Of a stretch of DNA of 64,000 nucleotides, positions 48,878 through 64,000 are shown in pieces. The stretch comes from Escherichia coli. Lineage in GTDB: Bacteria; Pseudomonadota; Gammaproteobacteria; Enterobacterales; Enterobacteriaceae. Position 1 is the stretch's first letter, and every line of letters starts with the position of its first letter. The position numbers and the translations under genes were made by a program. The notes under the pieces were generated by a model that was given only the letters and a program-made list of their open reading frames with translations, had not been told where the DNA came from and ran no database searches. The DNA is taken from assembly GCF_051903065.1 (NCBI RefSeq), contig NZ_CP178438.1; one strand, 5' to 3'.

Positions 48878-50185
<1,308 letters not shown>

Positions 50186-50212
50186 TTACTCCCGTGATTC
50201 AATTGGTGACAA

Positions 50213-50521
<309 letters not shown>

Positions 50522-50532
50522 GTAACCCTACC

Positions 50533-51795
<1,263 letters not shown>

Positions 51796-51859
51796 CTAAT
51801 GTCAACTACTACTGAGACCCGAAAATCAGGTCGTTAAAAATCCCCATATCGAGGGCGCG

Positions 51860-51890
51860 GCATTATAACACCGCTTCAAGGATATGGGTA
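51860..51890 (-). promoter_or_regulatory. spc operon promoter (extended -10: TGtTATAAT at 51862-51870; -35 weak)
   Basis: rc reads ...CCTTGAAGCGGTGTTATAATGCCGCGCCC, in the rpsQ-rplN gap. Confidence 0.5.
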
Positions 51891-51922
51891 GAAAAAATAA
51901 ACGGCTCATTTCTGAGCCGTTT
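51891..51922 (-). terminator. S10 operon terminator (after rpsQ)
   Basis: Minus-strand transcript: aaacggctcagaaatgagccgttt hairpin followed by TTATTTTTTC. Confidence 0.65.
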
Positions 51923-51947
51923 ATTCGTATCGAGAGAGTGTACTGTA

Positions 51948-53876
<1,929 letters not shown>

Positions 53877-53881
53877 CTACC

Positions 53882-54163
<282 letters not shown>

Positions 54164-54176
54164 TTATCCTCTAAAA

Positions 54177-56572
<2,396 letters not shown>

Positions 56573-56592
56573 TCAATCGCTCAATGACCTGA

Positions 56593-57075
<483 letters not shown>

Positions 57076-57081
57076 CCGCGC

Positions 57082-57109
57082 ATTATACGCAAATCTGAGC
57101 CTGACGCAA
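57082..57109 (-). promoter_or_regulatory. S10 operon promoter (-35 TTGCGT, 16-bp spacer, -10 TATAAT, GCGCGGG discriminator)
   Basis: rc of 57082-57109 reads TTGCGTCAGGCTCAGATTTGCGTATAAT followed by GCGCGGGC. Confidence 0.65.
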
Positions 57110-57282
57110 GCATCGGGCAGAAATTAATCGCAACGCGCAGATTGCGAGCTGCATTCCACGAAATTTGTAAGGTTGTGAAGATAGCGTTTTTCACCGGAAT
57201 CAGGTTAACAAATCAGCGCTCTCTCTGTTGCTGAGCATCCGGAGTTATTCGATGGTGATACTCCAATTACAGAGGATGTTTT

Positions 57283-57750
57283 ATGGACACTACCCTTCCC
57301 TTTCTAATTTTGTACGCTTGTTTATCAGCCCTACTTTTTTTCTGGGATGCAAAGCATGGCTTGTTACCTGACAGATTTACGTGCCCGTTACTCTGGTCAG
57401 GTCTTTTGTTCTATCAAGTTTGTCATCCTGATGGTTTAGCCGATGCGTTATGGGGGGCAATTATTGGTTACGGCACATTCGCTGTCATTTACTGGGGGTA
57501 TCGCATACTGCGCCATAAAGAAGGATTAGGCTATGGTGATGTGAAGTTTCTCGCCGCCCTTGGCGCCTGGCATTCATGGGCCTTCTTACCACGACTGGTT
57601 TTCCTTGCTGCCTCATTCGCTTGCGGAGCCGTAGTTATTGGTCTGCTCATGAGAGGAAAAGAATCATTAAAAAACCCGCTGCCTTTTGGGCCATTTCTGG
57701 CGGCTGCGGGTTTCGTTATAGGCTGGGATAGTTTGCTGATAGGCCGTTAA
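57283..57750 (+). CDS. Type IV prepilin peptidase-like membrane protein (peptidase A24 family), short form (155 aa); probably corresponds to the terminal gspO gene of the T2SS locus found here in K-12
   Basis: 155-aa hydrophobic ORF with LLPDRF and [18 protein letters not shown] motifs (the two catalytic-Asp motifs of prepilin peptidases); RBS GAGGA 8 nt upstream; convergent with bfr. Confidence 0.7.
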
Positions 57751-58223
57751 TCTTTAACTTTAATTTGTGATTGCAGGTAATTTTGTAGGCCGATTTTACC
57801 GATGAGATCCAGTTCAGTTTCGAGCCAGTCGATATGACCTTCTTCATCGGCAAGGATCTCGATCATCATATCGCGGCTAACATAGTCATGAACGCTGTCG
57901 GCATACGCGATAGCCTCACGCAGATCCTTCGCACCTTCCAGCTCTAATCGCAGGTCGGATTGCAGCATCTCTTCGACATCTTCACCGATCCCTAGCTTAC
58001 CTAAATCCTGTAAGTTGGGGATTCCTTCTAAAAACAAAATACGCTCGATATATTTATCAGCGTGTTTCATCTCATCGATGGATTCATGGTATTCGACGTC
58101 ATTAAGACGCATCAGTCCCCAGTTTTTAAACATCCGGGCATGGAGAAAATACTGATTGATTGCGACAAGCTCATTTCCCAATAGTTTATTGAGATAATTT
58201 ATGATTTTAACATCACCTTTCAT
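57747..58223 (-). CDS. bfr: Bacterioferritin
   Basis: 158-aa [59 protein letters not shown]. Confidence 0.9.
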
Positions 58224-58295
58224 TTTATAGTCCCTCCGCTTCCACTATTAGAGCGTAGATGGGGCTAGCGGGATGTCAAAAAATAAGCGTGGGCT

Positions 58296-58490
58296 TCAGG
58301 CAATCTCTTTAAATTCTGGCATCTGCATCAACTCGTCCTGCATCACTTCGCGCGCGGCGCGAATGCACTTACCACATTGATTTCCCACAGGAATAAACTT
58401 ACGCAATTGTTGGAAAGATTGCGGATGAAACTGACGGACTGCCTGGCGAATTTTTTTGTCACTTACACCATTACACAAACAAACGTACAT
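58296..58490 (-). CDS. bfd: Bacterioferritin-associated ferredoxin
   Basis: 64-aa ORF MYVCLCNGVSDKKIRQAVRQF...GNQCGKC with [2Fe-2S] Cys motif. Confidence 0.9.
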   Translation of the reverse strand: MYVCLCNGVSDKKIRQAVRQFHPQSFQQLRKFIPVGNQCGKCIRAAREVMQDELMQMPEFKEIA

Positions 58491-58523
58491 GATTGCTCCC
58501 GTTCAAATTCTGCGCAAAGTGTA

Positions 58524-58546
58524 AATGAGAATAGTTATGATTACAA
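58524..58546 (-). promoter_or_regulatory. Candidate Fur box upstream of bfd
   Basis: rc reads TGTAATCATAACTATTCTCATT, a partial match to GATAATGATAATCATTATC; bfd is Fur-regulated by established knowledge. Confidence 0.35.
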
Positions 58547-58622
58547 TAGCACAGTTTTATTTGCGCCATAGTTCAGCGAGCAAAATTACGACTAAATATT
58601 TCGAGCTCAAATTACGGGCAGC

Positions 58623-58647
58623 AAAAAGGGCGCCGAAGCGCCCTTTT
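58623..58647 (-). terminator. Rho-independent terminator after tufA
   Basis: Minus-strand transcript: GGGCGCTTCGGCGCCC hairpin followed by TTTTT. Confidence 0.7.
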
Positions 58648-58672
58648 CAATTCAAAACTAATTAACGTGTAA

Positions 58673-59914
<1,242 letters not shown>

Positions 59915-59927
59915 TTAACCCTTAGGC

Positions 59928-62054
<2,127 letters not shown>

Positions 62055-62138
62055 TTATCTTTTAGGCGTTCAATTTAAGTAGCCCAAAGCGGGCTGCTTA
62101 CTGGAAGCGCCCGCCTGGTGACTAAAACTCCGAAGGGA

Positions 62139-62624
<486 letters not shown>

Positions 62625-62705
62625 TTAATTCAGGATTGTCCAAAACTCTACGAGTTTAGTTTGACATTTAAGTTAAAACGTTTGGCCTTACTTAACGGAG
62701 AACCA

Positions 62706-63183
<478 letters not shown>

Positions 63184-63205
63184 GAAATATACAACGATCC
63201 CGCCA

Positions 63206-63493
63206 TCACCAGGCCATCTGGCTGGAGTGCTTAACCGTAAGTCTGACGAAATCAGTATAGTCAATGGGAATGATGTCGTTCGAAATTTGACCAGTCAAAC
63301 CGCGGGCAATAAGGTCTTCGTTCAGGGCATAGACCTTAATGGGGGCATTACGCAGACTTTCAAGGTAGCGGTTACCGTCAACTGCGGCAGTTACGCCATC
63401 TTGCAATAATAGCAGTTCGTCGCCTTCACTGAGCAGACGCAGCAGCGCAGCAAAATCCGTCAGCCAGGGTGAACGATGTAACGTGTGCAGCAT
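63206..63493 (-). CDS. tusB: Sulfur relay protein TusB
   Basis: 95-aa [37 protein letters not shown]. Confidence 0.9.
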
Positions 63494-63500
63494 AAACGCC

Positions 63501-63859
63501 TCAAAACCTCAAAATAACATCGTAGTTGGCGAGTTCGCGGCGTAAGGCATCTGCTTCGAGCGGCGTGGCTTCGACAACAAAGGGGGTCTGCGGATCTAAC
63601 CCGCGTTCGCGCAGTGAAGCCGCACAAACCCAGCACTGTTCAATGTCGTACAGACCCAACAATTTAAAAGTGGCAATGTAATCACGCGCCAGCACTGCAT
63701 CGGGCTTTTGTCCTGGCAGTAGCTGAAAAACGCCATCAGCAATAAAGAAGACGGCCAGCTCGTCAGTTAACGCGGAAGTTGCCAGTAAAGCATCTAAACC
63801 TTCCCGCCCGGCAGCGGTACCATGAGGCACAGTAGAAAAAACAAACGCAATTCGTTTCA

Positions 63860-63860
<1 letters not shown>
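63501..63860 (-). CDS. tusC: Sulfur relay protein TusC
   Basis: 119-aa [42 protein letters not shown]. Confidence 0.9.

Positions 63861-64000
<140 letters not shown>

Follow-up and report, generated by a model that had tools for sequence, protein, structure and literature searches.

The window analysed here is a stretch of 64,000 nucleotides of Escherichia coli DNA, and this study concerns the interval within it between rpsJ and tufA, which carries the prepilin peptidase gene hopD. The interval contains three genes only, hopD, bfr and bfd, and we call this arrangement the compact form. In E. coli K-12 MG1655 (NC_000913.3), the order is rpsJ, gspB-gspA, gspC-gspO, bfr-bfd-chiA and tufA, where gsp denotes genes of a type II secretion system (T2SS). 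The segment specific to K-12 measures 16,638 bp, compared with 1,532 bp in the window. Haplotypes and genes were counted in 5426 complete E. coli genomes, among which 2254 (~42%) have the compact layout with hopD and 3062 (56%) have the K-12-type block with gspO. The features of the locus in the window are as follows.

56593..56904, minus strand: rpsJ (ribosomal protein S10, gene 1 of the S10 operon), left flank; open reading frame (ORF), DNA 100% identical to K-12 rpsJ
57082..57111, minus strand: core of the S10 promoter, with -10 TATAAT at 57087..57082 and conserved GCTTGCGT (-35 region) at 57111..57104; sequence reading
57089..58620, no strand: variable segment, compact haplotype, 1,532 bp; blastn against K-12
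57272..57276, plus strand: Shine-Dalgarno GAGGA, 6 nt 5' of the hopD ATG; sequence reading
57283..57750, plus strand: hopD, core-only A24 prepilin peptidase of 155 amino acids (aa), with D30 in LLPD, D86 in GYGD and NPLPFGP at residues 131-137; Pfam PF01478
57747..58223, minus strand: bfr (bacterioferritin), allele of the probable ancestral type; Pfam Ferritin
58296..58490, minus strand: bfd (bacterioferritin-associated ferredoxin), allele of the probable ancestral type; Pfam Fer2_BFD
58621..58643, minus strand: intrinsic terminator of tufA, GGGCGC-TTCG-GCGCCC with a T-run; junction alignment
58673..59857, minus strand: tufA (EF-Tu), right flank; ORF

The rpsJ-tufA interval and its junctions

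An earlier note on this DNA had reported that the gsp genes and chiA are absent, that a lone peptidase ORF of 155 aa is present, and that bfd and tufA are separated by 182 bp (58491-58672). The coordinates bear this out, and so does a tblastn search of window 50001-64000, in which no gsp or chiA homologue was found between rpsJ and tufA. The gene order that the note had given for K-12 is that of NC_000913.3. On the other hand, it missed that the peptidase gene is already annotated as hopD, that the layout occurs in ~42% of genomes, and that bfr and bfd belong to the swapped segment.

By blastn, the left flank (55000-57088) is 100% identical to K-12 and the right flank (58621-61528) is 99.76% identical, whereas within 57089-58620 K-12 aligns at bfr-bfd only, at 77.4%. 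The left break (57088/57089) falls a single base upstream of the -10 box of the S10 promoter. The right break (58620/58621) lies at the end of the T-run of the tufA terminator, at its last base, and identity to K-12 resumes at 58621. When the flank was scanned for traces of an import tract, the seven differences from K-12 in 58621-61528 were scattered and uninformative. The tufA DNA is 99.6% identical to that of K-12 and 97-98% identical to those of Salmonella and Citrobacter.

The S10 promoter was found near 57,110, where the earlier note had placed it, and the assignment to 57082..57111 is based on the S10 leader, which we take to be ~172 nt long. Its -10 and -35 elements are invariant in seven sequences from Escherichia, Salmonella and Citrobacter, and the K-12 haplotype retains the -35 octamer ungapped with a different spacer. 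On the opposite strand from hopD, rpsJ lies 378 bp upstream, and this spacer is nearly constant across genera (367-399 bp). At the other end, the stop codons of hopD and bfr share the palindromic TTAA (57747-57750), tail to tail, which leaves the convergent pair without intergenic space or terminator. Salmonella, Citrobacter and E. marmotae share this 4-nt overlap of stop codons; at the E. albertii locus, bfr stops two codons early.

Ancestry of the compact and K-12 forms

The synteny rpsJ-hopD-bfr-bfd-tufA is found in Salmonella, Citrobacter, E. marmotae, E. albertii and E. fergusonii as well as in E. coli O157:H7 Sakai. Because the outgroups all share it, we consider that the compact form is ancestral. 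Our overall reading, which we regard as likely, is that the compact form has been inherited vertically, that the K-12 block is a derived, foreign replacement of the whole hopD-bfr-bfd segment, and that hopD most likely encodes the peptidase for the Ppd/Hof pilins.

The alleles of bfr and bfd are in line with this. Those of the window are 84.5-86.8% identical in DNA and 95-96% in protein (Bfr 96%, Bfd 95%) to those of Salmonella and Citrobacter, compared with 76-80% in DNA and, in protein, 88-90% for Bfr and 88% for Bfd against K-12. The K-12 genes are about equally distant from the window, Salmonella and Citrobacter. In neighbour-joining trees of Bfr and Bfd together, the window and K-12 alleles were joined in 0 of 300 bootstrap replicates, and K-12 joined, with 95% support, the locus with a T2SS and chiA of UBA5654, a metagenome-assembled genome of the Enterobacteriaceae. 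The gene order in UBA5654 is tufA-chiA-bfd-bfr-gspO..gspD, the same as in K-12, and its fusA is 92.8% identical to that of E. coli, which corresponds to a genus-level distance. This closest relative of the K-12 block is 84% identical in amino acids for GspD, 73% for ChiA and 53% for GspL. The earlier note had left it open whether the strain never acquired the T2SS genes or lost them. The compact outgroups support the first of these, and the second does not agree with a bfr-bfd that is 77% identical to K-12 and nearer to Salmonella and Citrobacter.

The peptidase gives a similar picture. HopD of the window is 88-93% identical to its counterparts in other Escherichia species and 64-66% identical to those of Salmonella and Citrobacter, compared with 41% to K-12 GspO over 138 aa. 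A neighbour-joining tree of the A24 core places the short, lone Enterobacteriaceae genes in one clade, roughly in the order of the species tree and apart from the clade of T2SS-linked GspO. On these identities and on the separate clade, the proposal that the peptidase is an N-terminally shortened orthologue of GspO fails.

The same data bear on the view that the locus descends from a K-12-like form by loss of gspB..gspM, chiA and the 5' portion of gspO, with a truncated gspO left behind. The window peptidase does share the position and orientation of gspO, convergent with bfr, and HopD aligns to the C-terminal 138 residues of GspO; an apparent real case of such a deletion exists elsewhere, in Enterobacteriaceae RIT693, and the wording 'gspO-rpsJ deletion' used for strain W (PMC3032704) would match. 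However, the identity between HopD and GspO is too low for this, a deletion cannot produce a bfr-bfd that is 23% diverged from K-12 and nearer to other genera, a second, independent deletion of chiA would be needed, and the compact form is present in all outgroups. We find this origin of the window locus scarcely conceivable and treat it as refuted by the GspO identity, the bfr-bfd divergence and the separate clade.

The polarity could also be reversed: E. coli would originally have carried the K-12-type block and would have re-imported the compact segment from another species. The K-12 type is in the majority, it contains deep internal diversity with sub-lineages ~2.8% apart, and it is found in phylogroup A and B2 strains (PMC3032704, PMC2649431). 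Nevertheless, the compact alleles of E. coli are nearest to those of other Escherichia species, and their synonymous divergence (dS) from E. marmotae (hopD 0.56, bfr 0.46) falls between that within E. coli (0.12-0.19) and that from Salmonella (at least 1.4). In addition, all other sampled Escherichia species are compact, and the K-12 bfr and bfd fall outside the group of Escherichia, Salmonella and Citrobacter. Accordingly, we consider the reversed polarity very improbable.

If the compact form is ancestral, a foreign block of gspBA-gspC..O-bfr-bfd-chiA would have been swapped in for the entire hopD-bfr-bfd segment. It would probably have entered by homologous recombination, through crossovers in flanks that are extremely conserved, namely the S10 promoter and leader on one side and the tufA terminator on the other. 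The imported gspO would then have taken over the peptidase slot from hopD. The two forms now both segregate in E. coli. Sub-lineages ~2.3-2.8% apart exist within both haplotypes, and the polymorphism is therefore old. Between two compact sub-lineages, the window and E. coli LH09-a, there are 55 differences in 5 kb, 43 of them within 57100-58000 (hopD and the 3' part of bfr), and zero in the 2 kb of ribosomal-protein genes on the left; dS between the two (hopD 0.12, bfr 0.19) is high for a comparison within a species.

The slot also holds T2SS clusters in Yokenella, Chimaeribacter, Trabulsiella, Kosakonia oryziphila and some members of Enterobacter and Citrobacter, and the Bfr and Bfd of most genomes with a T2SS there cluster with K-12 and not with their own genera; the monophyly of Kosakonia was recovered in 0 of 300 bootstraps. 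A wider idea, to which we give somewhat less than an even chance, is that bfr, bfd, T2SS-alpha and chiA of K-12 are xenologues within a gsp-bfr-bfd(-chiA) cassette that hops between genera and families of the Enterobacterales (e.g. Kosakonia oryziphila, Enterobacter sichuanensis, Yokenella, Trabulsiella and Chimaeribacter) via the S10-operon and tufA flanks, and that HopD, rather than GspO or PppA, is the native 'PilD' of the Ppd/Hof pilus, whose pilins are cleaved and left unmethylated. We dropped the 'mobile cassette' clade as a result in its own right, since its topology is suggestive and its bootstrap is 20%. At the locus of Enterobacteriaceae RIT693, a lone peptidase of 158 aa beside bfr belongs to the GspO clade and is accompanied by Bfr and Bfd of the cassette type, and this looks like a genuine remnant of a T2SS deletion.

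The hopD product

HopD matches Pfam Peptidase_A24 (PF01478) with 79.4 bits (cut-off 26.5; E 3e-22) over residues 10-118, corresponding to positions 2-103 of the 104 in the profile. This is its sole Pfam domain. The Cys-rich N-terminal domain A24_N_bact (PF06750) was not detected, and the 194 bp between the left breakpoint and the hopD ATG would not accommodate it. PF06750 is present in PppA (117 bits), in several T2SS-linked GspO proteins, among them those of C. braakii and UBA5654, and in the lone genes of Hafnia psychrotolerans and Tatumella. Since HopD has no such domain, it would be expected to cleave prepilins without N-methylating them. Searches against NCBIfam gave no family match for HopD or K-12 GspO, and a sequence-profile search of the PDB gave none for HopD.

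Both catalytic-Asp motifs that the earlier note had read in the peptidase, LLPD and GYGD, are present and contain D30 and D86. Across 50 members of the family, D86, G83, G85 and NPLPFGP never vary, and the conservation of D30 is at least 90%. We collected 839 homologues that are named 'leader peptidase HopD', and the window gene has the synteny, the length of ~155-160 aa and the clade of this family. The peptidases found in the slot differ in length as follows.

T2SS-linked: 254-264 aa (K-12: 225 aa)
Lone, Enterobacteriaceae: about 155-170 aa
Lone, Hafnia, Tatumella, Pantoea conspicua and Rouxiella aceris: 224-280 aa

The HopD proteins of Sakai and Salmonella enterica have the same length of 155 aa, the same synteny and the same 4-nt stop overlap, and differ in nothing of substance. 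K-12 GspO, which is the HofD/HopD of Whitchurch and Mattick, resembles HopD in its slot and orientation beside bfr, in its A24 core and in both Asp motifs. Like HopD, it has no detectable PF06750, and its N-terminal 80 residues contain no Cys motifs. It differs in being 225 aa long with an N-terminal extension of 72 residues, in being the last gene of the gspC-O operon and in belonging to the other clade; unlike the window hopD, it probably arrived with a foreign block that has its own bfr-bfd and chiA. GspO of K-12 has been reported to be an active peptidase (PMC4971541).

Bifunctional peptidases/N-methyltransferases of the PppA, PilD/XcpA and PulO type share the A24 core (PF01478) with HopD, and type IV pilin-like substrates are expected for them too, but they carry PF06750. 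In its minimal architecture, HopD resembles the short Flp-prepilin peptidases TadV, CpaA and FppA, which consist of ~140-170 aa with the protease core only and no methyltransferase domain. Unlike these, HopD has no adjoining tad/flp locus, and its nearest relatives in sequence are of the GspO/PilD type. The AlphaFold2 model of HopD has six long helices, with a mean predicted local distance difference test (pLDDT) of 87 and a predicted template-modelling score (pTM) of 0.82. Its top fold match in the PDB, and the only meaningful one, is the archaeal preflagellin protease FlaK (3S0X; Foldseek probability 0.97, TM 0.59, with an E-value of only 0.41). FlaK shares the GxGD catalytic motif and the polytopic helical membrane fold with HopD, whereas it is only 15% identical in sequence, is archaeal, and has an extra soluble domain and a different class of substrate.

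Role, frequency and significance of hopD

Against E. marmotae and E. albertii (dS ~0.56), the ratio of non-synonymous to synonymous divergence (dN/dS) of hopD is 0.10-0.12, compared with 0.01-0.03 for bfr. A GAGGA or AAGGA element stands at the same position before the gene in Escherichia, Salmonella and Citrobacter. In enterohaemorrhagic E. coli (EHEC), hopD is transcribed, and it is one of five genes whose expression on lettuce increases with time in O157 Sakai as well as in an O26 strain. We conclude that hopD is a selected, expressed gene and no relic. The earlier note had offered pilins encoded elsewhere or a decaying remnant as explanations of the peptidase; the low dN/dS, the motifs and the transcription argue against the remnant, and pilins encoded elsewhere are most likely its substrates.

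On the basis of gene distribution, HopD most likely processes PpdD, the chromosomal type IVa pilin, and the minor pilins PpdA, PpdB, YgdB and PpdC by cleaving their leader peptides. The genes for these pilins are universal in E. coli; ppdD-hofB-hofC, which has no linked peptidase gene, is present in 5424 of the 5426 genomes. Only 3619 have pppA, and about a third are without it, while nearly all have hopD (2254) or gspO (3062) in the rpsJ-bfr slot. The simplest reading would be that the prepilin peptidase of this slot has a housekeeping role and serves the type IVa pilins of the Ppd/Hof system. The genome that is identical to the window (NZ_CP083585.1, 725001-815000) lacks yghJ-pppA-T2SSbeta at the usual glcA-pheV site. 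Between glcA and pheV, that genome has IS1, remnants of type VI secretion genes (a tssG fragment, tssJ and tssE) and a JetD fragment; an island of ~29 kb with a group II intron is integrated at pheV, and yggR, for a PilT-like ATPase, is intact nearby.

Alternatively, HopD may act on other substrates, such as T2SSbeta pseudopilins or plasmid-borne type IV pilins, or another enzyme may process PpdD. Prepilin peptidases are shared and exchanged between systems (PMC6668835), PppA processes PpdD in K-12 (PMC4971541), and we found no link to the competence regulon upstream of hopD. We nonetheless consider this rather unlikely, given that pppA is missing from a third of E. coli, among them the genome that is identical to the window, while ppdD-hofBC is universal. 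HopD is, moreover, conserved in genera such as Salmonella in which no T2SS is known.

Several points weigh against the overall reading, in which the compact form is ancestral and hopD encodes the Ppd/Hof pilin peptidase. On the side of ancestry, the trees are neighbour-joining trees of short proteins with weak deep nodes, and the entire cassette clade was recovered in only 20% of bootstraps. Recombination in the flanks is a proposal drawn from the junction positions, and the relatives of the K-12 block are distant, with UBA5654 the nearest. On the side of function, cleavage of any prepilin by HopD is a predicted role, for which we found no biochemical demonstration in the literature. The gene evolves fast, with 64% aa identity between E. 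coli and Salmonella compared with 96% for Bfr. Frameshifts or truncations affect it in E. fergusonii (ORFs of 62 and 116 aa) and in several genomes of Shigella flexneri and S. dysenteriae (95-129 aa), and 56% of E. coli dispense with it and have gspO there instead. A scan of 56850-58750 for sigma-70 promoters and terminators gave no convincing promoter for hopD, and no consensus CRP-S site (TGCGA-N6-TCGCA) was found upstream of it.

The fast evolution, the broken copies, the lack of a detected promoter and the many E. coli genomes without the gene are also what would favour hopD being a functionless relic that decays slowly and is retained by chance or through its overlap with bfr, and the dN/dS of 0.26 within E. 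coli (11 non-synonymous and 13 synonymous changes) would agree with that. However, the ratio is lower over longer distances, the frame is intact at ~155-160 aa over many genera, and the catalytic and C-terminal motifs and the Shine-Dalgarno element are conserved. Transcription is regulated in two EHEC serotypes, and the genomes without hopD have gspO in the same slot. We therefore judge the relic improbable. The breaks in E. fergusonii and Shigella are losses confined to those lineages, and the gene is conserved otherwise.

The scan of 56850-58750 found only a terminator-like inverted repeat on the minus strand (57147-57128). The best CRP-S-like match upstream of hopD is at 57143-57158, with two mismatches, and the window contains 33 such matches compared with 40.9 expected by chance. 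This element, TGCGAGCTGCATTCCA on the plus strand, lies 125-140 nt upstream of the hopD ATG. Its half-sites TGCGA and TTCCA are invariant and its 6-nt spacer is variable in E. coli, E. marmotae, E. albertii, E. fergusonii, Salmonella and two of three Citrobacter, and it is absent from other genera and from the K-12 haplotype. The element has a CRP-S-type core as its left half and overlaps the inverted repeat TCGCAA-N8-TTGCGA (57128-57147). Going by this pattern of conservation, TGCGAGCTGCATTCCA may be a binding site for a regulator.

The arrangement in the window is common, already annotated and ordinary. In O157:H7 Sakai, which has the compact layout, the peptidase gene is identical in DNA to that of the window and is annotated as hopD, 'leader peptidase HopD' (ECs_4188). 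The exact HopD protein of the window occurs on at least 1000 contigs, and ECNB21-M121 is 100% identical to the window over the region of the locus and over window 1-25000. The K-12-type system is carried by CFT073 and UTI89, which are B2 uropathogens (PMC2649431). The genes gspA-O are lacking in strain W and in every B1 strain examined, which was termed the 'gspO-rpsJ deletion' (PMC3032704). That description treats T2SS-alpha-negative strains as deletion derivatives, and its polarity appears to be wrong, with K-12 having the imported form.

For the window itself, these results have little consequence. On the other hand, the much-studied Bfr and Bfd of K-12 differ by ~12% in protein from the native E. 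coli alleles. In a genome-wide association study of mastitis E. coli, bfr, bfd and tufB were listed as 'accessory' fitness or pathogenicity genes at the same frequencies as gsp and chiA (PMC11390585). Pan-genome clustering would be expected to flag bfr and bfd as separate accessory matches in this way, given the diverged alleles of the 16.6-kb block, in which they are linked to gsp and chiA, and the matches to bfr, bfd, tufB, gsp and chiA are best read as one linked block. In compact strains without pppA, hopD is the obvious candidate for maturation of the PpdD/HCP pilus; whether the hopD or the gspO allele was present when the EHEC type IV pilus was reconstituted is not stated in the citing papers. 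Our literature search found no paper on divergent bfr-bfd alleles or on replacement of the segment. What is new here is modest, namely the polarity of the event, the xenologous bfr-bfd of K-12 and the account by linkage of the bfr and bfd matches.

Two minor observations concern assemblies. In Salmonella GCA_900456265.1, the gene rplD (L4) is split into two called ORFs (102 and 96 aa), probably by a sequencing frameshift. The contig that carries the locus in draft assemblies is ~26 kb long if compact and ~39-41 kb long with a T2SS in the slot, which offers a quick proxy for the haplotype; assemblies presumably break at the tuf duplication and at the rRNA operon close by.

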